64,000 nt of DNA. It comes from a virus. Each line of letters starts with the position of its first letter. Positions within the stretch are counted from its first letter, which is position 1. The notes beneath the pieces were generated by a model that did no database searches, had not been told where the DNA came from, and worked only from the letters and a program-made list of their open reading frames with translations. Shown here one piece after another: positions 2,821-45,473 of the stretch. The position numbers were made by a program, and so were the translations under genes. Where the stretch lies: the IMG/VR virus record IMGVR_UViG_3300046370_000585, positions 6,697 to 70,696 of that record; one strand, written 5' to 3'.

Positions 2821-3058
2821 TGTTACCAAAAAGCGATTTATCTAAAATTATTGAGTTAAATTCCTCAATTTTAAAACTATTACCTAAAAACGATTCTATG
2901 CATGATATGTACTTCAAAATGGATAAAAGGCTAAAAGAGAGATTCGATTTATATGATAAATTTATTAAAAATCCCTACAAAGATGCTTCCCGCTCATTTA
3001 AATTAAATTCTGATAAAGAATTAGGTTTAGGCGAATATTTATCTCCAGAGGACTAGTT

Positions 3059-28520: not shown

Positions 28521-30746
28521 TTGATTGACTTTGAAAGCCCTATCTGCCAATATAGTACCATGAACAATAAAGAAATGCTCAAGCAAAACATAGTTGATAA
28601 GCGTCTAACGCTCGCAACTCTCATGTATAACGCATCATCAAAGATGAACGAAGAAGAGATCGAGGAGATGAAATCAGATTGTCAAAGACTACATCTGTTT
28701 GCAATGAATGGAGATTTGCAAGGAGCATTGGAAGGAACGGAAAAACTTATAAAACAAATTCAAAATAAAACAAATAATGAATAAAGAGTTTTGGAGCAAC
28801 ATGAAGAATGTGTCAAATATAATGGCAGACCTTGAGGCAGAGCATGAAAGGTTTTTTAGTAACGAAGAAGAATTACAACTTCTTAATTATAAAAAGAATT
28901 TTGTAGATTCAATTTTATTTTGGTCTGAGTCTAAAGAGATGAATGAAGAAGAAAAGATGAATAGAATTAGATGGGAGTATAATAATATGTTTGATTTGTT
29001 ATGTAAAATTATTGATAAAAATGTAGAAGAATGGGACAATAATACAAATAATAATAAAAATGACGACTACGACTTCTAAGACAACAAATAAACACTCCAA
29101 AAGCCTAGAAACCTTAATAAGAAATAATATTTGGGAATATCATGTATGGAATTGGAAAGGAAAAGATAAATTACGAATCTTAAATTTGTCTAGCTCAGAT
29201 AAAGATGTAGAATTTTTAAGAGAGCAAGGATATGAAAAAATAAATACGATTGATCCAAATAATATAACAAATCTTGATAATGAACGAGAATACCATGTTG
29301 CTATATCCATTTACCCCAACGATCAAATAAAGAACTACGAAGATAGAGAAGACTATATGTACGAAATGTATGAAAGAATACATCTTAATGGGGCAATTTT
29401 TATATGTGTTTCAAATAAAAGTGGAATAGAACTAGATTGTAATATAATTGAAGAGAATAGAAGTTATACTTGGTATGTAACTTGATAAAATTTTTCATAA
29501 AATTATTGCGAGAAAAACTTCTTAAATTTTTTAGTTGACAACAACCCTCATATTTGAGATACTATAACCATATGACGAGCGAATCAGACAAATCAATCTT
29601 ACGAGAGATCGCTAAACTTCACAAGAAAATTGATTATCTTACAGACGAAGTTATGTCAAGACTAGATCAATTACCTAAAGAGGAAGAGGAAGCTCAAAAA
29701 GATTTTCCATTTGCACCTAACCCACAAGGGATCAAAGAAATCAAAATCAAACGAAAGGAATAAAAATGAGTATTGCGAAAAATGCTAGAACAAGTCAAAT
29801 CATGCGTAACATCGAAAGCGGACATTATGTAGGAAACAAGCGTTTCCAAGGGTATGGCACTTTACCCGAAGATATTCCATCTTGGGATTATCGAGCAAGA
29901 AGGCATGGTCAGGTATTAGCGAAGCTAGAGAGAGACGCTCAACGCAAAATTCGTAAAAACAAATAGCTTGACACATCGCGTGTCTTGCCATAGTATTGTC
30001 TTATGAATACAGCAGAAGCCTTTTTACAAGATATTGAGCTTTCCATCAAGCAAGTAGAGAAAGAAGCAAACTCTCAACCTCGCAAGGGCATGATGGTTTA
30101 CTTAGATAAATCCACACCAATTATGGTGCAGTACGCCAACGAAAGCTCATTCAACAAAGCAAAAGCAGTTTCGTCTCGGAAGGGACAACAATCTTGTCTT
30201 AGAAATGTAATTGATAACGGAGGAAAGATGCAATGAGTGAATCGTATGTAGAGTTTGATAAGTTGGCATGGATTAGCGATAAGCCAATTCCTGTTAGAGG
30301 CACGGAAGTAAATGTTCGGATCAATGGTATCGGACGCTCAGTAGTACAGAAGTATTTTGTTGAGCATAACATCATTGGTCTAATTGTAAAGCCTTATGAT
30401 CCGCCAGCTTGGTACATCAAGCAGAATGGAGCAGATGCAGTATGCCATGTGTTTCCAGCAGAAACCGAAGAGCTTAAGGTTGTCACTGAGGAAGGTAAGC
30501 CTAATAAACAATTTTATGAAGCAAGCCATGATTCACTCAGAGATGATTACCCCTTTGGTACAATTACACAAGGAGATAAAAAATTGATGGAGATGATGGA
30601 TAATAATCAGTAGTAAAATAAAGGAGAAAGGATAAAAATTCATTTAGCTTAATATAATACAAATACATATAAAATAAAAACTCGAATAGAGTAAATATAA
30701 AATAATAAAAGCGATTCGTAACTTCTTGCGGTGGAGGGAGTTGCGG

Positions 30747-30763
30747 AAATCGCCCGCCGATTT
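30747..30763 (+). repeat. Palindromic intergenic element, copy 1 (core only)
   Basis: AAATCGCCCGCCGATTT. Confidence 0.9.
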
Positions 30764-31307
30764 TTAAAAGTTGTCAAGCATAAAATTCATAAAGTTTTTT
30801 TAGTTTTACAAAAAAAAGTGTTGACTCCATGCTAAAAACTGTCATACTAGGTACTATGACATACGCACAAGAACAACTAGAATATCTCGAATGGAAAAAT
30901 CAGTTCGAGAAAGAAAAACGATATCACCCATGCGACATTAAGGAAGGAGTCTATGCTTTAGTAGATGATGATAGTCCTAGTGAATCGCCAATGTATTTTC
31001 TCACATTGGAAGGGGCATCAACTTATGCAAAGGGAAGTTACCCTTACTCAAATGGCAATTGGTCAGTATATAGAATAGGAAACAAAGTATTATGACAATG
31101 ATTACAGGAAAAGAACAAATTGATGCTTTTAGGGCAAGAGTATTGCTTAGAGGCTTGAAACTAGAAACGCTTGGTATGACAAGGCGAGGACAATCTTGCT
31201 ATGCAATCATCAAACAAGAATACGGATTGAAAGGCAGTAAGAAAAAAGTTTACGAAGAATTCAAAAAGATGCTTGACATATAGCAGAAAATTTGAGACAA
31301 TACTATT

Positions 31308-32513
31308 ATGCAGAAACTTGAAAAGCTATACAAAATTGACTCTCTAGGTAAACTACGAGAGTGGACTATGGTTATTGACAAAGATTCATTCTATGCCGAA
31401 AAAGGCTTAGTTGGAGGTAAAATCGTATGCGATAAACCTACAACTGCAATCGGCAAGAACGAAGGCAAGATCAATGAAACTACTAACGAAGAGCAAGCAT
31501 TGCTTGAAGCTCAAGCAAGATGGGACAAAAAACTCAAAGAAGGATATGCGTTGACTCCAAAAGATGCAGAAACAATGAGTTATTATGAACCTATGCTTGC
31601 ACAAAAGTTTGAGGATAGAGAGAAGGAAATTCAAGCTATATTCAATGACGAGTTGCGAGTTCTTTCTCAACCAAAGCTAGATGGCATCCGTTGTATAATT
31701 CGCATGGAAGATGGAGAGGTAGTTGCTCGTACTCGCAAAGGTAGAACTATCGACACAATTCCTCATGTGATTGAGGAACTGAGCGTCTTCTTTGATTGTA
31801 ACAAGAATGCCATACTCGATGGCGAGTTGTATAACCACGACTTGAAGCACGACTTCAACAAGATTGTTTCTCTTGTACGCAAAAAGACTCCCGAAATGAC
31901 CAAAGGTGATTCGGAAAAAAGTTTTGCAAGAAAACAAGCAAAGTATGAAGAGGCATTAGCAGAGTCAAAAAACTTGATTCAGTATTGGGTTTATGATTGT
32001 CCAAGGTTGTCAGATGAATACGATGAGTCAATGATATTTTCGTCTAGGAACTTTATGTTGCAAGGAGAGTTCGCTGATGTTGTGGATGGGAATTCCGTCA
32101 AACTTGTGGAAACAAGCGAGTGTTATTCTTTCTTGTCTCTCGATCAAGCATATTCTTCCTTTATGGAAAAAGGTTACGAAGGACAAATGATTCGCATTGA
32201 CTCTCCATACGAAAGCAAGCGTTCAAAGTCCTTACTCAAGCGTAAAGAGTTTCAAGATGCAGAATACAAGGTAATTGATATTGAGGAAGGTAATGGCAAT
32301 CGTAATGGTACTGCAAAGCATTTAGTATGCTATTGCGATAAAACCGACCAAACTTTCAATTCTAATGTCAAAGGTAACTTTGACTACCTTGCAGAGATTC
32401 TTGACAACAAAGATGATTACATTGGCAAATTAGCTACAATCAAGTTCTTTGAGCTAACTCCTGATGGAGTGCCACGCTTTCCATATGCAATAGCATTTCG
32501 AGATTACGAATAA
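31308..32513 (+). CDS. ATP-dependent DNA ligase
   Basis: PMLA, motif I SQPKLDGIRC, ILDGELY, YWVYD, GYEGQMIR, LLKRK and PRFP. Confidence 0.92.
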   Translation: MQKLEKLYKIDSLGKLREWTMVIDKDSFYAEKGLVGGKIVCDKPTTAIGKNEGKINETTNEEQALLEAQARWDKKLKEGYALTPKDAETMSYYEPMLAQKFEDREKEIQAIFNDELRVLSQPKLDGIRCIIRMEDGEVVARTRKGRTIDTIPHVIEELSVFFDCNKNAILDGELYNHDLKHDFNKIVSLVRKKTPEMTKGDSEKSFARKQAKYEEALAESKNLIQYWVYDCPRLSDEYDESMIFSSRNFMLQGEFADVVDGNSVKLVETSECYSFLSLDQAYSSFMEKGYEGQMIRIDSPYESKRSKSLLKRKEFQDAEYKVIDIEEGNGNRNGTAKHLVCYCDKTDQTFNSNVKGNFDYLAEILDNKDDYIGKLATIKFFELTPDGVPRFPYAIAFRDYE

Positions 32514-32524
32514 ACCACTAACCA

Positions 32525-33121
32525 TTGCGAAAAATGATTGATCCAAAAAAAGTAACAAACTATAACAGAACCAAATCCGAATTACAAGAATTTCTTTTAT
32601 TTTGTATTTGTGTGGCGGGCAAGAAAAGCAGAATAGAAGCACCAAAGCTTGATAGATTTTTGAGTTCACTTAAGCGTAGATTCAATGTAGAGGAACCTTT
32701 TGCCCTAATCCAATTGGCAAAAGAAGACGGAAGTCTTTGGGATGAAATGCAAGAGCATAGAATTGCTCCCTATTCGCAGAGATATAATAGCTTTATCGAT
32801 GTGATCACTAAACTTGATGGCAACAACTTAGATAAGTCTACATTAGATGAATTACAGTCTGTTAGGGGTATTAGCACAAAAACTAGCAGATTCTTCTTAA
32901 CGCATTCTGTAGAAAAATTCGATGATCCAATCTTAGATACTCATATTCTCAGATTCTTAAGCGACTTTGGTTACAGAGATGTACCCAAATCAACTCCTCA
33001 AAATCCAAAAGTATATGAAAGATTTTCAAGGTTATTTCGAAGTATTGCTAGATTCGAAGGTAAGAGTGTGGCAGATTTTGATCTAGAAGTTTGGACAAAG
33101 TATTCTTACGGAAACGCTTGA
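32525..33121 (+). CDS. HhH-GPD/Ogg-like DNA glycosylase-fold protein 1
   Basis: LQSVRGISTKTSRFFL...PILDTHILRFL and DFDLEVW. Confidence 0.7.
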   Translation: MRKMIDPKKVTNYNRTKSELQEFLLFCICVAGKKSRIEAPKLDRFLSSLKRRFNVEEPFALIQLAKEDGSLWDEMQEHRIAPYSQRYNSFIDVITKLDGNNLDKSTLDELQSVRGISTKTSRFFLTHSVEKFDDPILDTHILRFLSDFGYRDVPKSTPQNPKVYERFSRLFRSIARFEGKSVADFDLEVWTKYSYGNA

Positions 33122-33153
33122 CATAAAACACCAACTCCATTATATTATATATT

Positions 33154-33888
33154 ATGATTACAAAAACTATTGCTAAAAAACAAAACAAAAACGAGAGAGT
33201 AGATCGCCACATAGATATTATTAGCTCATCCAACAGATATGCCAAAGTTGATAACTTCTTTGCTAAACTAAATTCTTCTGTTGTGGATAAAGAAACTAAG
33301 TATTGGGAAGAGCTTACGATTCGTGACGATGCTGAATATTTTGATCGTTGGATATTTGCCATAATGAGCGTACATACTACATGGGAGAGTAATGTAAGAG
33401 GCTACAACGATGCAATGAGTGACTTATCATGGACAATCTCAAAGCCTAGACTAGAGAAGATGATTACTGATGCAAGAGTAGGAATCAATCATAGAAGAAA
33501 CAAAGGTCTTTGGCAACTTGTTCAAAAGTTTCGCTCGAACCCTAAACAATTTCATAAGAAAAAGAATGAAACTTGGCAAGAGTGCCGTAATCGTCTTGTA
33601 GGTAGTATTTATGGGTTAGGTCTTGCGAAGACTACATATGCTATTGCACTTGGATTTCCAACAGAAGCAAAACTCTGTTGCTTAGATGTTCATTTGCTTC
33701 GTTTTATGGGTCATAATGTAAAGAAAGGTCATGCAAGTTCTCAAAAAGTTTATGAGGAAATGGAAAACGAATGGTTAGAGCGTTGTGAGCGTTATGATGT
33801 TTCGCCAAATGTTGCAAGAGAAATTTATTGGAACAAGGTGCAAAATCGTAGAAATTCTCGCTATTGGAGTTACTGCTTAGAAAGGTAA
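33154..33888 (+). CDS. HhH-GPD/Ogg-like DNA glycosylase-fold protein 2
   Basis: RNRLVGSIYGLGLAKTTYAI...CCLDVHLLRFMG and YEEME. Confidence 0.65.
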   Translation: MITKTIAKKQNKNERVDRHIDIISSSNRYAKVDNFFAKLNSSVVDKETKYWEELTIRDDAEYFDRWIFAIMSVHTTWESNVRGYNDAMSDLSWTISKPRLEKMITDARVGINHRRNKGLWQLVQKFRSNPKQFHKKKNETWQECRNRLVGSIYGLGLAKTTYAIALGFPTEAKLCCLDVHLLRFMGHNVKKGHASSQKVYEEMENEWLERCERYDVSPNVAREIYWNKVQNRRNSRYWSYCLER

Positions 33889-34411
33889 AGTTATGGAAAC
33901 ACAAACAAATTTGAATAAACTTATGTTGGATGACGAGGCAATCTATTATCAAGAATACGATTCCGCAATCATTGGCGTAGACTCAAAAGGTAGGGTAGTT
34001 TACGATATCGACAAATGCGTAGAAATTCTTGTTGATGGAGGAATGGAATACGAGGAAGCTTGCGAATATTTTTGGTTCAATACGGAGGGTGCATATCATG
34101 GAGAAATGACTCCATTGTTTATATCTAGCATTGATAAAGTGTAATGGAAGCTTTAGTTATGCTAATTTTTTATTCTGTATGTATTTTTTTACTTTACCAA
34201 AGATTGTCATAGAATAAGTATGACAGAAGTTGAAATCCGTGAATATTTTGAGTCCATAAAATGGTTTGATGCAAAATTTGATAAAGGGGAGGACATACAA
34301 GTTATTATTCAAGATATGTGGCAAGCTTACCCAGCAGCTACCATGCATTTGCTAAAGGAGGGATTTTTTATGGCGCTTGCCTTAAGAAACTGATAAACAG
34401 CGACTTAGGGC

Positions 34412-34435
34412 AAATCGCCCGCCGATTTCGTGCCA
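34412..34435 (+). repeat. Palindromic intergenic element, copy 2
   Basis: AAATCGCCCGCCGATTTCGTGCCA. Confidence 0.92.
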
Positions 34436-34491
34436 TTTTTTTTCTAAGAAAAACCTTGACTTTACGAAGAAATCTGTCAAACTAATATATT

Positions 34492-34959
34492 ATGAAAAGA
34501 ACACACGATTGCGAAAAGTACGATATTGATTTCTCTAGAAAAGTTTTTGTTTACAAGAATCTTCATAAAGGTTGTTGGAGTATAAAACAAGATGGGCTTG
34601 TGAAGGCTCATTCTGATGGTTCTCCCATAACTTTGTATTTTACACAAATGAAAGTGAATCGCAAAGGTAGAGAGCGAGTGCTTAGAGAAAAGCGTAAGAA
34701 TGTTCATGCAGGTGTTGAGGGCTACCTTTCTCACGAAGATAGTCATGTTTGGCATGGTTGGGTAGACATGGTGGAAATTTCTTATAATCCATATAAGTAC
34801 CCTTCATTTTACGATGTGGAAACCAAGAAGTCAAGGTGGTATGCAGATCTATGCAAACTTTATCAAGATAAGGTTCTCGTTGAACGCGTGGTGCGTGGCA
34901 TCCCATTTTTTCATAACCCTGTTTACAATGAAGCTGAAAATTGCTTGACACAAGCGTAA
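34492..34959 (+). CDS. Phage hypothetical protein
   Basis: VFVYKNLHKGCWSI...GRERVLREKRKNVHA...YNPYK. TTGACT lies 36 nt before the ATG. Confidence 0.7.
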   Translation: MKRTHDCEKYDIDFSRKVFVYKNLHKGCWSIKQDGLVKAHSDGSPITLYFTQMKVNRKGRERVLREKRKNVHAGVEGYLSHEDSHVWHGWVDMVEISYNPYKYPSFYDVETKKSRWYADLCKLYQDKVLVERVVRGIPFFHNPVYNEAENCLTQA

Positions 34960-35210
34960 ACCTAAACTAGACTACATACTATGACACAATCCAAAATCAG
35001 AGAAGAAATTCTACAACTTGTAAGAGGTAACCTTGCATGGGCAGACCCAATGTCAAAAGTATGCCTAGATCAAAATCAATTGCATCCAAAAAAGTTTCCA
35101 ATTGGAAGTACATTTCAGTCCGCAGAAGAAGTCTTGGAAGACATCATTTGTGACTTGACATCCCTCCAAAATGAGCTTAGGATAGAAGCATCTTTTCAAT
35201 CAGCACAGCT

Positions 35211-35612
35211 ATGAAAACATTATACATCGTAAGAGGACTTCCAGGAAGTGGCAAGTCTAGCCTAGCAAAGAAAGTTACAGAGTTAGTATACTCTGCTGAC
35301 GACTTCTTCACCAACAAGAAAGGGGAATACAATTTCAATGCCAAATTGCTTGGAAAAGCACATGAATGGTGTTGGGGCAAAGTAAGAGATGCAATGTTCA
35401 TTGGAGTAGAAGCAGTTGCCGTTGCCAATACCTTTACTCAAGCATGGGAGGCAGAAAAGTATTATAAGATTGCAGAAGAGTATGGATACTCTGTCTTTGT
35501 AATTGAATGTCAAAATAACTTCGGTAATGTTCATGATGTGCCTCAAGAAAGTATTGACGCAATGAAAAAAAGATGGGAAAAAGACTTGACTCCTGTCGGC
35601 AATCTGTCATAA
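35211..35612 (+). CDS. P-loop kinase (AAA_33 / N4BP2-like polynucleotide kinase)
   Basis: IVRGLPGSGKS, SADDFF, AHEWC, VANTF and NVHDVP...MKKRWE. Confidence 0.8.
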   Translation: MKTLYIVRGLPGSGKSSLAKKVTELVYSADDFFTNKKGEYNFNAKLLGKAHEWCWGKVRDAMFIGVEAVAVANTFTQAWEAEKYYKIAEEYGYSVFVIECQNNFGNVHDVPQESIDAMKKRWEKDLTPVGNLS

Positions 35613-35643
35613 TTGAACATATAACACTAACAAAGGATACATT

Positions 35644-36057
35644 ATGGGATTAGATCAATACGCATATGCAACAACCGACGAGTTACCTAACTCTGAATTG
35701 GAACTTGCATATTGGAGAAAACACAATAGACTGCAAGGTTGGATGGAAGATCTTTGGATCGACAAAGGCAAACCTAATGCAAAGAAAGACCCTAGCCCTA
35801 TGGGTGATTTCAATTGCATACCTCTTGAGCTTACATTGTCAGATTTAGAGCAACTTGAAGCTCATATAGAGAATAAACAATTGCCTGCCACATTAGGCTT
35901 TTTCTTTGGGGAGGACTCTTATGAAACTAAAACAGAAGACGGAGAAACTTATCAAGAAAACGATTACGCTTACAAAGAAGAAGACCTAGCCTTTATAGAA
36001 AAGGCTCGACAAGCAATCACAGACGGCAAAAAAGTATTTTACAATTGTTGGTGGTAA
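35644..36057 (+). CDS. Phage hypothetical protein
   Basis: MGLDQY...YWRKHNRLQGW...GFFFG...YNCWW; AAGGA Shine-Dalgarno. Confidence 0.7.
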   Translation: MGLDQYAYATTDELPNSELELAYWRKHNRLQGWMEDLWIDKGKPNAKKDPSPMGDFNCIPLELTLSDLEQLEAHIENKQLPATLGFFFGEDSYETKTEDGETYQENDYAYKEEDLAFIEKARQAITDGKKVFYNCWW

Positions 36058-37182
36058 AAAATGAAATTGCTAAAAGAAATTATTGACCATTGGGGTTTTG
36101 TAGACTCAAGACAATTGCCCGAACTAGTAAAACATTTCCCTAACACTCCTCTTGTTATCAAGTGGGGAGGTATGCCAAGGGAACAAGTCGCTGCATCAAA
36201 AGTAGCTAGACGCATAGAAGAAGTTGAACAGTCAGGTAAAGACTATGTCCGTGAAGTCTTCATGTGTGCTAAACAAATGAACAACATCAAAGAAGTTTTT
36301 GGATTGACAGATTGATCTTAATTTGAAAGAATATTATCATGCAGAACATAAAAGAAGATATACAAAATCAAATCCGAAAAGTATTATTTGCTTATCCTAT
36401 CAAGTCTGAGATTGTTGAGGAAGTATGCCAAGTTGTTGAGCAAAACTTTCAAAACTATCCTTCGGGAAACCTCTCAGATTTACACTCGGATACTAAAGAT
36501 CAAAATCGTTATGTCGATAAAGATGCTGACATCGACATGCTCAACCAAATGTACAACCAAACGCTATAACTATGAATGAATACGACCAATATATTGATGC
36601 AGTTGTCTCAGAAGACGAACTCGGCACGCTACCTCCTTTAGACTCTAAGCCCGAATACGATGTTGATTCGGATACATGGGCATTACATTTTGAGTATGAA
36701 GATCCTTATACAGGAGGAAACGACATGGTTACCTTGCATTTTGACACCGAGCAAGGCGCAATCTTAACTGCAAACAAAATTATAAGCGATAGACATATAG
36801 CTATGTTAGAATTAGACAGAAAAAAAGCAGAAAACAGTCTTGACAAAAACCCTCAACAATGAGATAATTATAGCATGAAAAATCAAACGAATACGCTAGA
36901 AAAAACAATCACTAACCTTCTTGCTCGCGGAACAGCGATCGCAAGTTTTGATTATAATGGTTCCGCAAGGAATGTCGTTATTGGAGCTAAGGCTTCATCA
37001 GGAGATGACAGAGTTTGGGGAGTAATGAATAATCGAGCAATTATAGAACATAGAGGAAGAAAGTATTTATCCGCAAGAGTCAACAATGACATTGGATATG
37101 TAAAAGCTTTTTCCTTAGATAAAATTTCCAATTTTCAAGTAGATGGTTCTGTAGTATAGCCGTTGGTTAGTGGTGTGTTCAT

Positions 37183-37212
37183 GCGGAAGGTCTTCGGGCC
37201 TTCCGCTTTTTT
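37183..37212 (+). terminator. Rho-independent terminator
   Basis: GCGGAAGGTC-TTCG-GGCCTTCCGC followed by TTTTTT. Confidence 0.9.
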
Positions 37213-37220
37213 GTTTGTGA

Positions 37221-37243
37221 AAATCGCCCGCCGATTTTGTGCC
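37221..37243 (+). repeat. Palindromic intergenic element, copy 3
   Basis: AAATCGCCCGCCGATTTTGTGCC. Confidence 0.9.
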
Positions 37244-37369
37244 TCATTTTGGCAATATTTGAGACAGAAGAGGGTTTGTGTTTCATTTATGCATCACAAG
37301 AATAAAAAAAAGTATCGAACTAAGATTTTTTTTCTTGCAATTATCTTAGATTTTGTCATACTTATATAC

Positions 37370-37495
37370 ATGAAGGCAAGAGAGATAAAGATAAGAAAAC
37401 AAATTCTTTTCACCAAGTCTCGCCCACACAAGGTAAAGAAGAACACACTACATCGCAAACGCAAACACAAGGAGAACTTACATCATGTATCTTAA
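37370..37495 (+). CDS. Small basic peptide (41 aa)
   Basis: MKAREIKIRKQILFTKSRPHKVKKNTLHRKRKHKENLHHVS. TTGCAA lies 35 nt before the ATG. Confidence 0.6.
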   Translation: MKAREIKIRKQILFTKSRPHKVKKNTLHRKRKHKENLHHVS

Positions 37496-37780
37496 CGAAG
37501 AATACAACGAAGACAAAATCGAGAACGCACTTGACGCAAACGATCAAGCAATGGACTTGGTTTACAATGCAGTTATCGCCCCTATGGAAGATAAGCTAGA
37601 CGAGAAGCAAGCCTACGCTGTTGCCATTGCAGGTGCAGTCCTCAAGACTATCGCTCAAAAGGCATACGCTTACGAACAAATGCAAAAAGGTCAAGATTTG
37701 CGAAATTAGTGCTTGACTATCGCACGCATTTTTGAGATAATTATAACCATAATCAAGATAACCTAATACGAAAAAAAATT

Positions 37781-38533
37781 ATGAATAGACTAAACCTAAA
37801 CATCTGTGGTGGAGAACATACTAAAGTCGGCTTCGATGAAGTCTGTGCAGTGGAGACTCCACAAGCAACTGACACATGGCGACCAATTAGCCATAGCTAC
37901 CTTATCGACAGAGTTCGTTCTCATCTCGATGACAATGGCTACGATATTGTAGCTGAGAATCATAACCTCGCTCGCTTCGGGCAACGCTACTTTGGATTGT
38001 TTCAAGTTAGCAGTAAAGATCGCCAAGAAGGCGATAGAGGCACAATCCTAGGTCTTCGCAATGCTCACGACAAGTGCTTCCCTGCAGGACTTTGTGCAGG
38101 TGACGCCCCTTTTGTTTGTGACAACCTTGTTTTTCACAACGAGATTGTCCTTGCTCGTAGGCATACCAAGAATATCATGACTGACCTTCCTCAAGTCATT
38201 GCTCGCACCATCGGCAAATTGTCGGGTATGTGGAATACTCAAGACAAGCGAATCGAGTCCTACAAAGACTACGAGGTCACCAATGCTCAAGCGAATGATC
38301 TTGTCATTCGTGCTTACCAAGCAGGAGCAATTAGCAAGGCAAAAATTGCTGATGTCGTTGACCAATGGGAAACTCCCGAACATCCCGAATTCAAGGATCG
38401 CAATATGAATTCCTTGTACAACGGATTCACGGCAGTCCTTCGTGGAGGGGTCATGCAGTTACCAAAGCGTTCTGACGCTCTGCACTCTGTTCTTGACTCT
38501 GAAGTCGGACTTACTCTCGCAACCAAATCTTAA
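37781..38533 (+). CDS. DUF932-family phage/plasmid protein
   Basis: TWRPISH, RYFGLF, LGLRNAHDK, FVCDNL, RRHTK and SLYNGFT. Confidence 0.65.
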   Translation: MNRLNLNICGGEHTKVGFDEVCAVETPQATDTWRPISHSYLIDRVRSHLDDNGYDIVAENHNLARFGQRYFGLFQVSSKDRQEGDRGTILGLRNAHDKCFPAGLCAGDAPFVCDNLVFHNEIVLARRHTKNIMTDLPQVIARTIGKLSGMWNTQDKRIESYKDYEVTNAQANDLVIRAYQAGAISKAKIADVVDQWETPEHPEFKDRNMNSLYNGFTAVLRGGVMQLPKRSDALHSVLDSEVGLTLATKS

Positions 38534-38854
38534 TCATAAACCATAAGGAATAACTGATATGAAACATAAAAACCTCTCATCCGTTCTCAATAACCTCCAA
38601 GGGCGATTCGTTTCAGTTCTTGTCAAAGATGGCGTAAATCGTCATTCTTATTCGGCAAAATTGAAAAGTCATAGTTCTCAAGTGGTAACTTTTGTAGATA
38701 CCAATGAACCAAAAGGACGAATCTTTCGTAAGGTGCGTAGGTCAGCCATTCTTGGGCTGAAAAGTGGAAAAGATTCTTTTCGAAGAACTAAATCCATTTA
38801 GGTTAGTAGTCAAATAGGCGAATTAGCAAATAGGCAAATACGCCAATAAATACG

Positions 38855-38884
38855 GAGCCCCGAGGAGTTATCTCCTTGGGGCTC
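38855..38884 (+). terminator. Strong hairpin, probable terminator
   Basis: GAGCCCCGAGGAG-TTAT-CTCCTTGGGGCTC, after ORF 38559-38801. Confidence 0.7.
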
Positions 38885-38894
38885 AATGGTTTGC

Positions 38895-38920
38895 AAAATC
38901 GCCCGCCGATTTCGTGCCAA
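38895..38920 (+). repeat. Palindromic intergenic element, copy 4
   Basis: AAAATCGCCCGCCGATTTCGTGCCAA. Confidence 0.92.
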
Positions 38921-39114
38921 AACTTTTTTTGTAATTTTATCAATTTTTGCTTGCGTTTATTTCAATTTGTGTCATTATAGAGGAATGATAGAACTTATTA
39001 TGATTGTATTTTTTTCGTTCCTGTTAGCTATAAAAAGTCCAAATTTTAGTTGACAAACTTTAAAGATTCGCTTATTGTATTACTTATAACATTAAAACAC
39101 TAAACCTAAAAAAC

Positions 39115-39750
39115 ATGATTGCAGAAAAAATTGACACAAAACTTATAGAAGACTCTCTTAACTCCGTATCCTCTAACGGCATGACTCATCATGGTTATGC
39201 TTTCGAGGAATTTCTTATTCTTGCTTTAGGCTTTACTGAGCAAGATGGCACTCCTTATCGTTCAATTAGAGAAGGTGGCACTCAGAAGCATAATCAAGAT
39301 TTTGATATCCCTGCTGATGTTGTCGCTCGTAATCCAATTATACCTCAAAACTTGCAAGGTAATTGGTCTATAAAGGCTTGCGAGCATGGTAAAACAATTG
39401 GTTTAGGCATGGCAAACAATCAGTACAATGCATGGGCAAAAGACGGACTTATTCAAGCAATCGTTTTCTACAAGAAAGCTGATGATAGAAAAGTTGTTAG
39501 TCATTTTTCTATTCATCGTATTGAGCCATCTGTCAAATTTTGGGGCAACATTTCTAAGGAAATGATTGACAACATCGACCCAATGCTTCGCAAGGATAAG
39601 TCAATTGCATGGTCTAAAGATGAGACAAAGAAAGTAAACAGAATTGCAAACGGCATGATTGGTTTGCGTAACATCTCAAGGGAAAGCGTAGGTAGTCGCA
39701 ACCTGCAATGTTACATGACTTTCAACAATTATATGCAATTAGTTGCTTGA
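39115..39750 (+). CDS. Putative PD-(D/E)xK restriction-endonuclease-like protein
   Basis: HGYAFEE...DFDIP...WSIKA spacing resembles type II REase cores; this is only a weak motif-level match. Confidence 0.4.
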   Translation: MIAEKIDTKLIEDSLNSVSSNGMTHHGYAFEEFLILALGFTEQDGTPYRSIREGGTQKHNQDFDIPADVVARNPIIPQNLQGNWSIKACEHGKTIGLGMANNQYNAWAKDGLIQAIVFYKKADDRKVVSHFSIHRIEPSVKFWGNISKEMIDNIDPMLRKDKSIAWSKDETKKVNRIANGMIGLRNISRESVGSRNLQCYMTFNNYMQLVA

Positions 39751-39781
39751 CAAAAACCCTTTAATCTGAAAGAATAAAATT

Positions 39782-40012
39782 ATGGAAAACAACACTACAT
39801 ACAACGGATGGAAAAATTGGGCAACTTGGAATGTTGCTCTTTGGTTAGCTAACGACGAAGATCTATACAGAATTTCTCGTAGATTTGTAAACTACAAAGA
39901 TCTTGCAAATGCTCTTGAGGATTTTGGCATGAAAGTCACGCCTGATGGAGCGAGCTACCAAGATAAAGACCTTGATACTTACGCTCTTGATGAGTGGCTA
40001 ATGGATGAATAA
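39782..40012 (+). CDS. Small phage protein (YNGWxNxxTWNVxLW type)
   Basis: YNGWKNWATWNVALWLANDEDLY; leaderless promoter at 39747. Confidence 0.7.
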   Translation: MENNTTYNGWKNWATWNVALWLANDEDLYRISRRFVNYKDLANALEDFGMKVTPDGASYQDKDLDTYALDEWLMDE

Positions 40013-40022
40013 ACTGTGGCGA

Positions 40023-40056
40023 TTGGCATAAAAATCGCCCGCCGATTTCGTGCCAA
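40023..40056 (+). repeat. Palindromic intergenic element, copy 5 (full 34 bp)
   Basis: TTGGCATAAAAATCGCCCGCCGATTTCGTGCCAA. Confidence 0.95.
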
Positions 40057-40849
40057 CTTTACCTCTAAAAAAAATCGCATTTTGTGAATAACTTTATCAC
40101 TTTTTTCTTGCAATTACCAAAAAACTATGCTACCTTGTAGGTATATGATTAAGACTACTACATACAAAAAAGGAGATGTTCTGATCTCTCGTGACAACCA
40201 AGTTCTTCAGTTCAAGGGAACTTTCAACCATCCCGAACTCGGCAAGATTGCTAAGGTTCGAATTTACAACACGAACCGAGAGGTCGGCATCCGTTTCGAA
40301 GATGTCAAACTTCATCCATTTTTTTCTTAACTTAGGGGTTGACAAAAACCATTTTATTTGATTGAATACAATTATGACAGAATCACAAAGACTAGAACTC
40401 ATCGCTAACGCAGTCGCCAAGACTAACAAAAAAGTTGCTCCTCAGTTTGAGGATTTACTTGCAGACCTTCTCTCAGAAAAACTTGTTGTTGAGCATGGCT
40501 TGACAGAAGCAAAAGAAGATGACATTAAGGAGGAATTTGTTTCTCTCGATGCCGTTGGAAGTGACTCCGAGAAGGAGGACTTTGATAATGACGAAAATCT
40601 TGTCGATATGAATTGCCGAAGCTCTTTTTGGCAAGAAATTGAATCCTAAACGAAAGGAAAATTATGCTAATCCTACAATCAATCCCATTTTCGAATAAAG
40701 CAGGTTGGGTAACCGAGTCAATCCCAATGTATAAGAAGCAAGCTGAGGCTTTGCTCAAAATGCGAACCCTTGGCAACAAGGGCAAGAACCGAAGGCGGTA
40801 CAGACTCATAAAAGCTGAGTAAATAGCTCAGCAACAATACTTTGCGCGA

Positions 40850-40883
40850 TTGGTACAAAAATCGCTGGCCGATTTCGTGCCAA
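40850..40883 (+). repeat. Palindromic intergenic element, copy 6 (full length, between convergent genes)
   Basis: TTGGTACAAAAATCGCTGGCCGATTTCGTGCCAA. Confidence 0.93.
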
Positions 40884-41886
40884 CTTTTATATTATTCGTA
40901 AAGTCCGTCCCTAGCAAGGGAAAGTTCTTGGAGAATTTTGTTATACTCTTTTCTTGCTTTTCGTATTGCGTGCAAGGCATCTTGCACCGCTTCGCCTTGA
41001 GTCATAGTCTGCATTTCTGCCTCAGCCAAAAACTTTAAGTTTCCCTCAGCTTTGGACATTGCTAAAGCACATTCAAGTGCAGGATATCTTTTTTTTATTT
41101 TTTTCATATTTAGCAAGCCTTTTGAAAAACAACATTGAAGCGAAACTGATTAAGACCTTCGTCCCTCATGATTCTATTGAGATGAGACTGACTCGATGCA
41201 GTACGAACGCGTGGGCGATCATTGCCATCGGAATCGACGCCTTGATCGAAAATTTTTACTGCCCAATGAGTTGACCACTCTTGGATTCTAACTTGTATTT
41301 TATCTTTTAGCATAACTAACTATCGCATATTTTATTACTGAAGTCAAATTTTTTTTCAATTATTTTTCCACTCCCAAAGTTCGGGGTGAGAGTTCCAATG
41401 AAAAAAGAACCTTCCGTCTGATGTTTTCGCAACACTTTTTTCGTAATCCGAAGGTTCAACTCCGTACTTAAGGCGAAAGTTTGCTTCTGAAGTAGAGATT
41501 TGAAGATCTTTTTTGAGCTTAACAATTTCACCCATTGTAGGTCGATAAGTTTTATTTTTGAATACTCTAACCCTCTTCGGTTTAGTTTTATCAAAGTTCG
41601 TTGGCTTCGATTGAAATCGGTCAGGGGCATAGGCATTCCAAAGCTTTGCAACTTCATCAGCCGAAGCTTGTTTAGTATTGACTAAAGTGTTTGCAACATT
41701 TTGCAATTGCTTGCGTTCGTTGCGTCCGCGATTCCAAACGGAGTGGTCATCTGAATAGTCGTAAAACCAATCGTGAGACTTTAAGTCATTAGTGAATTCG
41801 GTTAGTAGGTTATTTATCATATAACATAAATGTAAACAAATTTTAGTAAAATTGCAAGCACAAAATGCGTTTTTGGTGATTTTTTT

Positions 41887-41912
41887 TTGGCATAAAAATC
41901 GCGGGGCGATTT
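41887..41912 (-). repeat. Palindromic intergenic element, copy 7
   Basis: TTGGCATAAAAATCGCGGGGCGATTT (as read on the + strand). Confidence 0.9.
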
Positions 41913-42152
41913 GACCCTCAAAAGTCATGTTGGGCATGATACCCGTAGTCAATGTCCTCTTGCTCCTCGAAGTCAAGAAGAGCAATCCTGTCTTGCAGGT
42001 CGCCAATTTCATTGCGAATCGCGACTCGGTCTGCAACCGAAAGAACGCAGTCCTTAAGGGTTTCGTGAAGGATAGAGATTTCTTTGAGCATTTCTGATTT
42101 AGTCATAAGTATAATCTAACACAAATTTTTATAAAGTCAAACTTTTTTTGCT

Positions 42153-42171
42153 AAAAAATCGCGGGGCGATT
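42153..42171 (-). repeat. Palindromic intergenic element, copy 8
   Basis: AAAAAATCGCGGGGCGATT (as read on the + strand). Confidence 0.85.
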
Positions 42172-42550
42172 GCCCCCGCCTAGAATATCTCTAGGTCGGG
42201 TTGTGCTGTATCGCTTGCGAACCAGTCGGAAGCGTTTATTATTTCACCGTTCAACACGGGCTCGAATTTGAATTGGTAAACGCCCGCGTTTGCTATGCCG
42301 TTAACGCGTTCGCGTGTGGTCGGTGTGTTCCAGCCTGCGAGCGACCAACGGACTAACCCATCAGGATCACGCTTAACAATTGCGTTGCCATGCAACCAAA
42401 CGGTGTTTCCGTCTGTCCTAGTGTTGCCAACTTTTTTGGCTACGCGTTGCTCGAATGCTTGTTTGATTTGTTCTGTAACTTTTCTCATATAATTATAAAC
42501 TAAAGCAGATAAAGCTAAATTGCAAGCAAAAAGATAATTTTTTTCAAAAA

Positions 42551-42576
42551 AAAATCGCGGGCCGATTTCGTGCCAA
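42551..42576 (+). repeat. Palindromic intergenic element, copy 9 (between divergent genes)
   Basis: AAAATCGCGGGCCGATTTCGTGCCAA. Confidence 0.92.
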
Positions 42577-42817
42577 TTAAAAAAGTTTATTTTACGAAAA
42601 AAAGTGTTGACTTAGCTTCCCATTTGTGCATAATGGTATACATGAACGCTAAAGAAAGAATGAATGAATGGAAAAAGCTTCCTTCGAATACTATTGCTTG
42701 GGAAACTTTCAAACGGCTAGTATCTCAGTTCGGAATGGACGAAGGTATCAAGAAAGCCCAAAAGATAATTGAAAAAAAAGGTTGACAAACACACATAAAA
42801 ACTGATAGGATTACATC

Positions 42818-43540
42818 ATGCTAAAAACTACATTGCTTACATCAGGAAACCAAAAAATTCTCAAAGGCGAAAAACTTGGTTATATAACAAAAGGTATTCA
42901 TCTTGCCCCAGCAAATCTTGCGGGCTACGAAGTTTGCCAATGGCGATCAAAGGGTTGCACTATGGCTTGTCTTAACACGGCAGGTCGTGGACAAATGAAT
43001 TCTGTGCAACAATCACGCATTGCCAAGACAAAACTCTTTTTTGAGCAAAAAACTGATTTTCTTGCTAAACTTGCAAAAGAAATCACATCTACCATAAAAA
43101 GCTCAATCAAGAAAGAAATGCAAGCGGTATTCCGTCTCAATCTCACAAGCGACATTATGTGGGAAAGCGAAAAAGACTTGCAAGGAAAAACAATTTTTGA
43201 GCAATTCAAAGATACCATGTTTTACGATTACACAAAGTCGTTCAAACGCATGACAAACTTTCTTTCAAAAGAAAAAAACTTTCCATCAAACTATCACTTA
43301 ACTTTCAGCCGTTCGGAGCATAACGACAAACTTTGCGAAATGGTTCTCGAAATGGGTGGTAATGTTGCCGTGGTATTTAGGAATCAACTTCCGCAAACTT
43401 GGAAGGGTTGCGAAGTTGTAAATGGCGACGAAACGGACTTGCGTTTTCTCGACAAAAAAGGTGTGGTCGTCGGGCTTATCGAAAAAGGTATGGCAAAGAA
43501 AGATGAAACAGGATTTGTTCAAGAAGGAATTGACTCTTGA
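42818..43540 (+). CDS. gp88-like phage protein (Cys cluster CxxxxxxCxxxC)
   Basis: CQWRSKGCTMACLNTAGRG, RLNLTSDI, FYDYTK, NYHLTFSRSE and GDETDLRFLD. Confidence 0.6.
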   Translation: MLKTTLLTSGNQKILKGEKLGYITKGIHLAPANLAGYEVCQWRSKGCTMACLNTAGRGQMNSVQQSRIAKTKLFFEQKTDFLAKLAKEITSTIKSSIKKEMQAVFRLNLTSDIMWESEKDLQGKTIFEQFKDTMFYDYTKSFKRMTNFLSKEKNFPSNYHLTFSRSEHNDKLCEMVLEMGGNVAVVFRNQLPQTWKGCEVVNGDETDLRFLDKKGVVVGLIEKGMAKKDETGFVQEGIDS

Positions 43541-43741
43541 CAAAACAACTTAACTCAACTATTATTTCAACATGAATGACACTTATTACGACTCAGCAGA
43601 AGGAATAACCTTATCACAAGAAGAAGCCTTTGGGGTGCTTGCCCAACATGGTTGCCAAGAACTTGATGAATTTTTTCAAGACATGGGTGACAAAGAAGAA
43701 TATGACGCACAGAAAGTTTTAGAGTGGCTAGGGTATTGAAA

Positions 43742-43775
43742 TTGGCATAAAAATCGCCCGCCGATTTCGTGCCAA
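43742..43775 (+). repeat. Palindromic intergenic element, copy 10 (identical to copy 5)
   Basis: TTGGCATAAAAATCGCCCGCCGATTTCGTGCCAA. Confidence 0.95.
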
Positions 43776-44863
43776 GTTGTAGACTTAACTTTTTTTATTT
43801 TTTTTTGCGATTAGGTGTTGACATATTCCTTCAAGGGGTTTATATTACTTATATGAACACTAAAAAAGAATTACAAGAGATTATCCAACAAAACACTGAA
43901 GCTGCAGAACTTGGCTGTGCTTTTTCTCGCATGAAAATTATAAATGCCCAAGCAGAACTAGATAAAATTGAAAGTCAATCCAAGGAATCTGTTTTGGAAT
44001 TATTTTCTCAACAACAAAGAAATTTAGTTGAATTTAGCTTGACATTCTGAACCAAAACATTAGGATTATATTTACTATGAAAATTCAACAAGAAATCTCT
44101 CGACTAACTTCAACGCTTCAAGCCCTCACTCAACAAAGACTTCTCGCTCTTCGTGAGGGTAAACATTCCGAAGCCAATCAGATTGCCTCTGTGCAAGTTG
44201 ATATTGATAACAAGATTCAAGAGCTAGAAAAAAAGATATAATTTTAGCTTGACACTCCAACCATATTACTACATACTGATATTATGATTACGATAAAAAG
44301 ACACCCAAACCTTGATAATTGGATAAACATTAGCTTCTTTGGTAAGCTCATTGAGCAAACTACTTCGAGGGCTAAAGCATTGCGTCTTGCGACTGCACTC
44401 TCTCGAAAGAATAACGATGTTGTTATTCATGACCTTGACGAACTACCTATTCACCTAAGATCAAGCAACTCATGAGTAACTTGCAAAAATCATTAGAAAT
44501 TGATAATCCTTTTGTGTTGACTTGTATTGATGGCAAGGCAATTATTATGCGAAAAGATAATCCTATTTATAACCCTTTACAAAACGACAGAATTCTTTCT
44601 ATTGATTGCGTTCTCGCCAATTCAGAAAGACTGACAGAGATTAAGGAAGGAATATTTTATTTGTCATGATTGATAAGATTTTATTTTGTTTGTCGATGCT
44701 TTATCTTTGTTTTGTTGGATCTTGCTTTCTTTTTGGTTGTGCAATGTTTGCAGAAGTAATTAGCAAAGGATTCTAATGAGTTGGGATATTTTACTTTTCT
44801 TGCCGTGGCTTTGGGTGTTCTGGGTTATGTGGCAAGACCTAGCAAGGGACTGAAAGAGGTAAG

Positions 44864-44899
44864 CCCCTCCCCCCTTTTTTCAAAAAAAGGGGAGAGGGG
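44864..44899. terminator. GC-rich inverted repeat with 17-bp arms between convergent regions
   Basis: CCCCTCCCCCCTTTTTT-CA-AAAAAAGGGGAGAGGGG (one mismatch). Confidence 0.6.
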
Positions 44900-44990
44900 A
44901 AGGCGAGGAAACGGGCGGGGGTGGTTTTCTTCAATATAAAATACAATTTTTAATTTATAATAATTGCTTGAACGAAAAAAAAATCGGACC

Positions 44991-45377
44991 TTACTCGATT
45001 TTAAGTAATTTCCTTTTTTTTGCTTTCTTTGGGACGGTCACCGTTAATATACCATCTTTTACCGAGGCAGAAGCAGCATCAGGGTCTATATCATTATATA
45101 CCGCGAATTCTCGATTAATTTCTGCGTTCATTCTATTGTTAATTTTCTTTGATCCCTCGACGATAATTCTATCATGCAAGACTTCAACTTTAATATCTTT
45201 TTTGTTTAACCCAGGAACTGCTGTCGTAATAATATAAGCATCATTAGCCTCATCTATATCTGCACTCAATTTGTAAGAATTTATTGTAGTATCTACAATT
45301 GAATTAGGCTCTACATTAAAAAAATCGGCAAGCAAAGAGCTTCCGAATCCGTTATAATTAATAAATGAATTTGTCAT
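44991..45377 (-). CDS. Small heat-shock protein (Hsp20/alpha-crystallin)
   Basis: DIDEANDAYIITTAVPGLNKKDIKVEV...ASASVKDGILTVTVPK. Probable start is MTNSF. Confidence 0.9.
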   Translation of the reverse strand: MTNSFINYNGFGSSLLADFFNVEPNSIVDTTINSYKLSADIDEANDAYIITTAVPGLNKKDIKVEVLHDRIIVEGSKKINNRMNAEINREFAVYNDIDPDAASASVKDGILTVTVPKKAKKRKLLKIE

Positions 45378-45389
45378 GCAATACATCTT

Positions 45390-45405
45390 GCAGTATTCAT
45401 GCCAA
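45390..45405 (-). promoter_or_regulatory. sigma54 (RpoN)-type -24/-12 promoter for hsp20
   Basis: Minus strand TTGGCATGAATACTGC (GG-N10-GC), 13 nt before ATG 45377. Confidence 0.6.
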
Positions 45406-45473
45406 AAAAATTAGTATAAAAAGCTAATTAATTAACGACTAATTGACCCAATTGTCTTTAAAATAGAGACAAA

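Follow-up and report, generated by a model that had tools for sequence, protein, structure and literature searches.

The window analysed here is a 64-kb segment (64,000 nucleotides, positions 6,697 to 70,696) of the 70.7-kb marine IMG/VR virus record IMGVR_UViG_3300046370_000585, rated 53% complete by CheckV. Between 29 and 45 kb it carries a run of small genes, mostly of unassigned function, in a region of 33–39% G+C; downstream of them lie an extracytoplasmic-function (ECF)-like phage sigma factor, the terminase and the structural genes. Interspersed among the small genes are ten copies of a 17-bp palindrome, AAATCG-N5-CGATTT, many of which bear on one or both flanks an arm shaped like a sigma-54 binding site, and at the edge of this array stands a small heat-shock protein gene, hsp20, preceded by a sigma-54-type promoter of canonical form. 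Sigma-54 is the one bacterial sigma factor that binds DNA silently until an ATP-driven activator acts; to our knowledge, phages have almost never been reported to use it. An earlier reading of positions 34,412 to 45,405 (the original prediction) had interpreted the palindromes as overlapping, convergent sigma-54 boxes that might act as decoys or roadblocks. Here, we examine the element in the window and in its relatives and propose, tentatively, that it may be a composite: a protein-binding palindrome at the boundaries of gene cassettes, overlaid with genuine, poised sites for the sigma-54 holoenzyme.

The phage and its relatives

Metagenome runs of seawater, marine and estuary samples, drawn from 14 studies, contain DNA of the window; no RNA run was listed for it. 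A megablast comparison with 50,697 phage records revealed no close relative in culture; identities to cultured phages reach at most 27% for the large terminase (best match about 26%) and at most 40% for the ATP-dependent ligase. No tRNA genes were found in the phage, nor any Rfam families in the window. An exact-pattern scan and later searches did, however, reveal the same core arrayed on six other phage contigs (G001 to G006), with 12, 12, 8, 11, 4 and 1 copies, respectively, counts that take in a few likely chance matches far from the arrays. On the most complete of these records (G002, 116 kb) all 12 copies lie inside 17 kb. The hsp20 proteins of the relatives are 72, 46, 42, 37–41 and 37% identical to that of the window, and the identities of the other genes between phages run from about 30% to as much as 99%, a strongly mosaic picture when followed gene by gene.

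A conserved palindrome between early genes

With at most one mismatch allowed, the core occurs ten times in the window against an expected 0.34, the copy at 30747 falling outside the range covered by the original prediction. By rough gene calls, one of which (overlapping 41896) was corrected by hand, all ten copies are intergenic. The N5 loop is rich in G+C. Among 59 copies compared for variation in the core, 42 are exact, 16 have a single mismatch and one has two; the changes in the 17 variant copies are in no case compensatory and fall mostly at the outermost base, and they are so few that base pairing is neither confirmed nor excluded by them. Given that this sequence is kept among phages whose hsp20 proteins and other genes have diverged to the extent described above, the 17-bp core is far better conserved than its surroundings.

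The flanks were analysed in 55 copies (10 in the window, 12 each in G002 and G001, 7 in G003, 10 in G004, 3 in G005 and 1 in G006). Fifteen of these keep the palindrome without any TGGCA arm, and the armless copy at 30747 has orthologous armless copies in G002, G001 and G004. The palindrome is therefore the primary element of the array and needs an explanation of its own.

Folding analysis set one class of copies apart. The two-armed copy at 40023 folds better than its shuffled counterparts (z of −2.0 and −3.4), and eight folds of one-armed or armless copies are no better than shuffles (z from −0.7 to +0.5). A terminator scan did not list the core hairpin; it returned only a hairpin at 42156 and an alternative one at 40018–40039, and the G+C-rich stem and U tract of a terminator are present only where the copy at 42156 overlaps its hairpin. 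Separate strong terminator hairpins just precede several copies. Judged from its sequence, the core would seem to behave as a sequence-specific DNA site rather than as an RNA structure. Two other kinds of element were considered and rejected: an N4-type hairpin promoter or an RNase III site, since most copies lack a long stem, and a two-block promoter for the phage's ECF-like sigma factor, since the conserved blocks are only 11–12 nucleotides (nt) apart.

A further motif accompanies many of the palindromes. The sequence TCAR-N4-TTR, a consensus of the kind recognized by integration host factor (IHF), is found within 35 nt and at fixed offsets in 25 of the 55 copies against about 4.7 expected. 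It lies directly to the left of the core in seven copies, and in eight its end is 5 nt upstream of TTGGCAC; such motifs adjoin palindromes in the related sequences L018, L019 and L045 and at 38896 in the window. This association suggests a nucleoprotein complex.

Flanking arms held in a fixed register

An exact TGGCA stands beside the core in 40 of the 55 copies and on both sides in four, which makes 44 arms. Their distance from the core is 2 nt in 26 cases and 3 nt in 18, never 1 or 4, and the spacing is coupled to the loop: all 26 of the 2-nt arms adjoin a loop that starts with GC, and all 18 of the 3-nt arms adjoin one that starts with C. Because of this pairing of arm and loop, the GG of the arm is followed at exactly ten nucleotides by GC (GG-N10-GC) in 44/44 exact arms, and this is so even with the AAATCG block displaced by one base in one class relative to the other; the two arms that have a single mismatch also conform. 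On the 66 core sides that are free of arms, the loop starts with C in 50, with GC in 14 and otherwise in 2. A naive Fisher test of the association between spacing and loop gives 1e-12, a value whose true weight is lower because the copies are related by descent, probably with gene conversion, and the 44 arms are not 44 independent trials.

The register also persists through coordinated changes at orthologous positions. In the copy that comes after a conserved gene of 80 codons, an arm at 2-nt spacing is combined with a loop ending in GC in the window, G001, G003 and G004; its G002 orthologue (L018:10034) has instead a 3-nt arm and a loop ending in AG, and the register is kept. A second switch of this sort, again with the register preserved, distinguishes the orthologous pair L043:12575 (G003) and L044:3817 (G004). 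The exact spacing remarked upon in the original prediction thus holds for every exact arm among the seven contigs, and the relatives do not conserve the core alone while losing it. Two-armed copies are always of the 3+2 type (4/4), and the symmetry axis of TTGGCA-N8-GC-NN-GC-N8-TGCCAA lies half a base off that of the core palindrome, which argues that arms and core are two superimposed systems.

The consensus of the arms is TTGGCA(C/T)(G/A)A, with the leading T in 36 of 44. In the 64-kb window the pattern TTGGCAY-N7-GC has nine matches against 0.77 expected, a number reached in 0/100 shuffles; eight of the nine are inside palindromes, one is at hsp20 and none is elsewhere. The top-arm pattern, with up to three mismatches, gives 10 matches against 1.28 expected.

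The individual copies of the window vary considerably in their arms and in their setting. The first (30747..30763, AAATCG-cccgc-CGATTT) has no TGGCA arm and is followed 57 nt downstream by a leaderless promoter of sigma-70 type. The second (34412..34436, core 34412–34428) bears a minus-strand arm, ATGGCACG..GGC, at 2-nt spacing, after which come a T8 run and a TTGACT promoter. The third (37221..37245), which begins 15 nt beyond a classic GC-rich terminator hairpin (37183–37206), has a minus-strand arm with one mismatch, AGGCA, also at 2-nt spacing; in this and the preceding copy, A or AG replaces the leading TT or T of the bottom arm. Copy 4 (38896..38920) follows a strong hairpin at about 38857–38885 and has the exact bottom arm TTGGCACGAAATCGGC on the minus strand at 38905–38920. 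Copy 5 (40023..40056) is a 34-nt two-armed palindrome in which the top arm, TTGGCATAAAAATCGC, forms a plus-strand 3-nt arm (40023–40038) and the bottom arm a minus-strand 2-nt arm (40041–40056). Copy 6 (40850..40883), between convergent genes, combines a variant plus-strand arm (TGGTA, within TTGGTAC) with an exact minus-strand arm at 40868–40883. Copy 7 (41887..41912, core 41896–41912, loop cgggg) lies within a block of minus-strand genes and has an exact plus-strand 3-nt arm at 41887–41902. Copy 8 (42156..42172) is armless, contains one mismatch and overlaps a GC-rich hairpin that resembles a terminator for gene 42180–42488 on the minus strand; copy 9 (42552..42576), located between divergent promoters, directs an exact minus-strand arm (42561–42576) toward the same gene. 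Copy 10 (43742..43775) is the second exact two-armed palindrome of 34 nt, with a plus arm at 43742–43757 and a minus arm at 43760–43775. The arms listed in the original prediction are therefore all where it had placed them, and its image of two convergent boxes holds for the two exact cases (cores at 40032 and 43751) and for the core at 40859, with one exact and one variant arm; it does not hold for the other copies, which have one arm or none.

The hsp20 promoter and the host

The gene hsp20 (44991..45377, minus strand) forms the edge of the array and is present in 5/5 relatives tested. The lone site TTGGCATGAATACTGC upstream of it (45390–45405, minus strand), to which the original prediction had drawn attention, is a promoter of canonical sigma-54 type, TTGGCATG-N4-CTGC followed by A; the ATG is at 45377, with 12 nt between the C of the GC and the start codon. 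In six phages that were read, the sequence upstream of hsp20 conforms to TTGGCA(C/T)G-N4-(T/C/A)TGCA, with the ATG 12–13 nt after the GC. Of the 29 phage hsp20 loci scanned, 14 have this motif, and the 15 that lack it are more distant; four of the 14 positive loci belong to more distant phages that have no palindrome within 10 kb. The hsp20 transcript is predicted to start at the start codon or one base before it and hence to be leaderless, a geometry that fits the general leaderless habit of this phage described below. An inverted repeat, CAATTGTCT..AGACAAATTG, lies at about 45440–45467, roughly 35–60 nt upstream of the promoter; it could be a candidate activator site, and the sequences upstream of the hsp20 promoter differ between relatives.

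The conservation of a canonical sigma-54 promoter at a phage hsp20 gene makes it very probable that the host has sigma-54 and its gene, rpoN. In a protein atlas the neighbours of the phage hsp20 are viral, Verrucomicrobiota and Fibrobacterota clusters. Its bacterial relatives are at most 38% identical and belong mostly to the Bacteroidota, and 4/80 of them have a sigma-54-like site within 300 nt upstream. The Shine-Dalgarno sequences of internal genes and the TTGACA/TATAAT-type promoters of the phage would speak against a host among the Bacteroidota.

Sigma-54-like character of the arms

The consensus of sigma-54 promoters is TGGCAC-N5-TTGCW, or, in its extended form, YTGGCACGr ... TTGCW. The −24 box of the arms matches the extended consensus fully (T in 36/44, then, after the invariant bases, C/T and G/A), and the hsp20 promoters of these phages have a −24 box that agrees with the arm consensus TTGGCAYRA. 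On the −12 side, the 18 arms of the 3-nt class have TCGC and the 26 of the 2-nt class have CGGC; TGC is never found there. The trinucleotide CGC at −14 to −12 is nonetheless found in 7 of the 135 sigma-54 sites bound in vivo in Escherichia coli that are listed in Tables 1 and 2 of PMC4591121, glnAp2 among them, and the 3-nt arms of G002 are identical to glnAp2 at 14 of 17 positions. With this shared TCGC ending, the 3-nt arms look like competent sigma-54 sites.

Promoters and cassette boundaries

The early region also carries promoters of sigma-70 type. Their pattern TTGACW-N16-18-WANNNT-N5-7-ATG has 13 matches in the window, where 0.86 would be expected, and a looser form of it precedes some 30 genes. 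These leaderless-type promoters extend over positions 3000–44300 of the window (for example, 33118–33156, 36304–36341, 39747–39784 and 43818–43855); most early genes begin exactly 5–7 nt after a near-consensus sigma-70 −10 box, and internal genes of the same units carry Shine-Dalgarno sequences of the AGGA type. The early genes thus appear to be expressed largely as leaderless mRNAs.

A promoter of this type (TTG..-N16-18-.A...T-N5-8-ATG) is found within 170 nt of 37 of the 55 palindromes, and the distance from the element to the next −35 box is 34–106 nt. Intergenic modules of about 150 nt are repeated as wholes within a genome; besides the arm and the core, each contains a semi-conserved segment, runs of A and T and a leaderless promoter of sigma-70 type. 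In a variant of the promoter, TTGACA is replaced by TTGCAA. The window has four such promoters (at 37335, 40108 and, on the minus strand, 41857 and 42525), all downstream of palindromes and none elsewhere. The example at 40108..40147 (plus strand, TTGCAA-N17-TANNNT) belongs to a repeat family, D8, whose members usually follow a T run (TTTTTTCTTGCAATTA); similar sequences are present in L018, L019, L044 and L045. The TTGCAA promoters may be a separate, regulated class.

Six copies of the element stand at divergent gene junctions and seven at convergent ones. When direction is judged by the side on which the leaderless promoter lies, sense outnumbers antisense by 8 to 3 among the 3-nt arms, and the reverse holds for the 2-nt arms, of which 3 are sense and 9 antisense (Fisher 0.039, a test that treats related copies as independent). 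The element thus has a weak polarity, and the arms do not behave as a uniform set of promoters for downstream genes.

The copies also coincide with sites of rearrangement. The window and G002 are collinear up to the copy at 38896; thereafter come three modules (the gene group at 39115, a minus-strand block and a gene of the GP88 family), each bounded by palindromes and unchanged in orientation, whose arrangement is A-B-C in the window but C-B-A in G002. Between G003 and G004, three of seven orthologous pairs align through the element, after which homology is lost completely. Among 373 blastn match ends, 51 lie within 60 nt of a palindrome against 27 expected, an excess that intergenic position alone could explain. 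The identity shared between copies extends over 24–31 bp. Contigs from three public DNA runs break at the repeats, which attests only to their repeated status, and contigs of one run labelled as a metatranscriptome (“probably DNA”) cover only scattered pieces of the window and, being contigs, give no information on transcription starts. The palindromes mark the boundaries of shuffled gene cassettes; quite apart from sigma-54, the element is a clean marker of such boundaries in a highly mosaic phage family, and as such it is useful for the study of accessory gene exchange among phages.

Neighbouring genes and other sequences

This mosaicism is extreme in the early genes around the array: when 29000–45400 is compared with G001–G004, neighbouring genes can be 95–99% identical to one relative and 37–60% to another. 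A DUF932-like gene (37781–38533) is 89–97% identical in all four relatives, as against 37–72% for hsp20. The protein of 42180–42488 (minus strand) matches the Pfam family Kyano_Gp96 (E 5.5e-7), named from T4-like cyanophages, a match that hints at gene exchange with cyanophages and says nothing about the host. A 41-codon open reading frame (ORF) at 37370–37495 (plus strand) encodes an extremely basic peptide, 69–93% identical in four relatives; it begins 6–7 nt after a TTGCAA-type promoter, just downstream of the palindrome at 37221, and is possibly a small nucleic-acid-binding protein. A long inverted repeat rich in G/C homopolymers (44855–44925; CCCCTCCCCCC..T/A run..GGGGAGAGGGG, then further G runs), unlike the rest of the region, separates the last of the small plus-strand ORFs from the 3' end of hsp20. 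The ECF-like phage sigma factor, a member of the sigma-70 family, is encoded among the late genes at 53889–54662 (plus strand) and is present in 5/5 related records checked.

The partners that such an array might use were sought among the phage's own genes. A sigma factor and an AAA+/winged-helix protein are encoded outside the array, and the AAA+ protein of the window resembles RuvB or a clamp loader. Five records were searched for a tyrosine recombinase, as an integron-like model would have it, and none was found.

Discussion

We favour a composite reading of the element, with reservations and with somewhat less than even confidence. The core would be a sequence-specific site between early transcription units, at the ends of the shuffled cassettes, most likely bound by a dimeric protein. 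The boxes on one or both flanks (TTGGCAYR, with GC exactly 10 nt after GG) should be recognized by the host sigma-54 holoenzyme, which would wait there, poised, as a closed complex until an active enhancer-binding activator triggers it. In each box the stretch from about −17 to −1 falls within the palindrome, and the holoenzyme would therefore be gated by whatever factor binds the latter. The 3-nt boxes, with the TCGC of glnAp2, mostly point toward the next gene; the 2-nt boxes, with CGGC, for the most part face the other way and might either be silent or give rise to antisense RNA. The 24–31 bp of identity between copies would offer a foothold for recombination and so account for the shuffling of the cassettes. 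Of all this, the anatomy of the element, its conservation, the GG-N10-GC register, the hsp20 promoter and the module boundaries can be read from the sequences, and the binding of holoenzyme, the gating and any transcriptional output are inferred.

Several observations weigh against this reading. Since 15 of the 55 copies are armless, sigma-54 cannot explain the element as a whole, and the kinship of the copies reduces the force of the register statistics. The T at −14, present in every hsp20 promoter, is found in no arm; GGC at −14 to −12 occurs in 0 of the 135 tabulated E. coli sites (PMC4591121), so that the CGGC ending, and with it the 2-nt arms, would lack precedent in that set. By rough gene calls the direction of the arms is mixed, with 14 sense, 13 antisense, 7 at convergent and 5 at divergent junctions. 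Transcripts from sense arms would place leaders of 75–110 nt on genes that are otherwise leaderless and have no Shine-Dalgarno sequences, which makes their productive value doubtful. No 8-mer is common to the 170 nt upstream of the arms, as a shared activator site would be. Neither rpoN nor a convincing enhancer-binding protein was found in the available phage sequence, where PF00158 matched only a generic AAA+ protein in G002, and a Pfam search of 30 early proteins, supplemented by PHROGs for 10 and by NCBIfam for 7, detected no DNA-binding domain within the array. An activator supplied by the host would be compatible with the absence of a phage-encoded one. The relatives of hsp20, terminase and ligase do not point to a particular host, and rpoN is predicted there from the hsp20 promoter.

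What, then, might the array be if the boxes were never productive? The original prediction envisaged holoenzyme traps, which would titrate the host's sigma-54 polymerase as the phage DNA replicates or would block and insulate the sigma-70 units. Strong −24 boxes coupled to atypical −12 boxes are what one would expect of traps, as is their number (8 in the window and, across the family, 44 arms among 55 copies), and a two-armed copy cannot hold two polymerases at once. It is also true that the majority of bound sigma-54 sites in E. coli are inactive in transcription, that these silent sites occur in either orientation relative to genes, and that “decoy” roles for them are discussed (PMC4591121). 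But in the same study intragenic sites left the expression of the overlapping gene unchanged, and roadblock repression is effectively ruled out by its authors (PMC4591121). In the phage, the elements are 34–106 nt from the next −35 box and would not occlude the promoters; titration would starve the phage's own hsp20 promoter as well; armless copies would have nothing to trap with; and the TCGC boxes resemble a strong, productive promoter. On these four grounds – the armless copies, the E. coli roadblock evidence, the distance from the promoters and the need of hsp20 for sigma-54 – a decoy or roadblock function of the boxes seems unsupported, and we regard the traps as distinctly unlikely. Ordinary intrinsic terminators, some of them bidirectional and alike by chance, are highly improbable. 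Certain copies do precede T runs (34412) or are flanked by A and T runs, seven lie between convergent genes and the one at 42156 overlaps a genuine GC-rich hairpin of terminator type; however, the scan lists only that hairpin and the alternative at 40018–40039, the fold z of one-armed and armless copies is near 0, four of the six base pairs of the stem are A-T, and a terminator has no need of an exact sequence kept across distant relatives.

Two accounts that dispense with sigma-54 deserve more weight, though each is in our judgement rather unlikely. The array might be a mobile regulatory cassette like the promoter-early stem-loops (PeSLs) of T4-type phages. The palindrome would then be the stem-loop in a repeated unit of terminator and promoter whose copies recombination keeps alike, and the arms would be passengers of two ancestral variants or extensions of the stem. 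Such a cassette would be expected to show the placement seen here, among small early ORFs, with terminators ahead of the elements and sigma-70-type promoters beyond them (within 170 nt in 37 of 55 copies), and so it would the repeated modules of about 150 nt, the change of module order at palindromes, the clustering of blastn match ends (51/373 against 27) and the breaks in public assemblies; PeSLs are laid out in a like manner (PMC4122927). That the core hairpin is weak and not called as a terminator fits this less well, as does the presence of separate strong terminators before several copies and of six copies between divergent genes, where a terminator would have no role. Moreover, the core is invariant across phages whose hsp20 proteins are only 37–72% identical, whereas PeSL stems, as described, differ between phage pairs (PMC4122927); pure hitch-hiking doesn't predict a register kept through coordinated orthologous changes; and the excess of match ends may only reflect intergenic position. 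The alternative of an operator array for a single phage or host regulator, its site made up of the palindrome and an optional TGGCA contact and controlling early or middle promoters of the TTGCAA type, draws on other features. Dimeric regulators typically have sites of 6-N5-6 geometry; the core is conserved in its sequence and not in its pairing; four phages keep armless copies at orthologous positions; the element is also found where promoters diverge; TTGCAA promoters lie downstream of palindromes in 4/4 cases in the window and in many in the relatives; and the IHF-like motif beside 25 of 55 copies (about 4.7 expected) suggests a nucleoprotein complex. Against it stand the lack of a candidate DNA-binding protein among the 30 early proteins searched with Pfam and the variable distance to the promoters (34 to 106 nt). 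Furthermore, the arms are tied to the GC of the loop and not to the axis of the palindrome, their 3+2 arrangement in 4/4 two-armed copies is unexplained by a symmetric dimer, and their consensus coincides in detail with the −24 box of sigma-54.

If the sites do bind holoenzyme, the early genes of the phage would be coupled to the stress or nutrient state of the host. A bolder version of this idea, which is conceivable though doubtful, would place the whole early region of a lytic marine phage lineage under a layer of host sigma-54 control, with 10–12 poised sites and palindromic operators through which cassettes are transcribed or silenced by antisense RNA, or else would make of it a sink for sigma-54 polymerase; in either case the repeats would double as recombination joints. 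Host enhancer-binding proteins, sensors of stress or nutrients, would then choose among the early cassettes together with the palindrome-binding factor, and a sigma-54 “regulon” or sink would thereby be described for the first time on a phage genome. Cyanophages have promoters driven by a nitrogen regulator, and a coupling of early genes to the state of the host would be a parallel to these in abundant, uncultured marine phages. Holoenzyme binding at these sites would also provide a natural test of the purpose of non-productive sigma-54 sites, a question left open by chromatin immunoprecipitation and sequencing in E. coli (PMC4591121).

Comparison with known systems

Among sigma-54 promoters, glnAp2 of E. 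coli is the closest to the 3-nt arms, with which it shares TTGGCAC, GG-N10-GC, the TCGC ending and 14 of 17 positions, and the hsp20 promoter of the phages matches the TGGCAC-N5-TTGCW consensus. Unlike such promoters, the arms have no upstream activator site that we could find and no consistent downstream gene, and half of them are directed against genes; 26 of the 44 end in CGGC (0/135 in E. coli), and they are set within an independently conserved palindrome. They can also be likened to sigma-54 sites that are bound and silent, a subject that a Salmonella study of transcriptionally inactive, intragenic holoenzyme sites reportedly takes up as well. Many of the E. coli examples have good motifs, lie in either orientation, as the arms do, and are bound in vivo without detectable transcription (PMC4591121). 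They are, as described, scattered, located mostly inside genes and not part of a repeat family (PMC4591121), whereas the phage sites are intergenic, arrayed and partly palindromic. A phage precedent for the use of host sigma-54 beside sigma-70 is provided by Pseudomonas phage YuA, which is reported to have a sigma-54-like promoter (bioRxiv 10.1101/2023.10.13.562163, citing Ceyssens 2008). In that account it is a single promoter region, with no array, palindrome or cassette-boundary role (bioRxiv 10.1101/2023.10.13.562163).

The layout of the region is most reminiscent of the PeSLs and of the promoter-middle stem-loops (PmSLs) of T4-type phages, in which a short, repeated stem-loop is associated with a sigma-70-type promoter between small ORFs of a plastic early region (PMC4122927, PMC2839356). 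In both cases copies are found at junctions where related phages differ in the content or the order of their genes (PMC4122927). However, the PeSL stem varies by phage pair (PMC4122927), whereas the stem here is identical across phages with hsp20 identities of 37–72%; the hairpin here is weak, the promoter is 34–106 nt away rather than adjacent and there are sigma-54-type boxes. In addition, the phage of the window, unlike the T4-type phages with PeSLs, has no close cultured relative.

Dispersed palindromes of a similar scale are familiar from other replicons. The C1 operators of phage P1 and the KorB sites of plasmid RK2 comprise some ten copies of a short, often palindromic site between operons, and the E. 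coli repetitive extragenic palindromic (REP) sequences and bacterial interspersed mosaic elements (BIMEs) combine palindromes with an IHF site. The phage element has in common with these its dispersed, short palindromes and perhaps, as in the BIMEs, an IHF site; it differs from them in its sigma-54-type boxes and in the lack of a recognizable cognate protein among the early proteins scanned.

The original prediction held that no phage system of this kind had been described. This must be qualified, since the YuA promoter and the T4-type PeSL repeats are known; as regards sigma-54-type boxes arrayed in a conserved phage palindrome, a narrow literature search, which is not proof, found no description. 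The element is thus best regarded as a variant on known themes – PeSL-like cassettes, sigma-54 sites and the use of host sigma-54 by a phage such as YuA.

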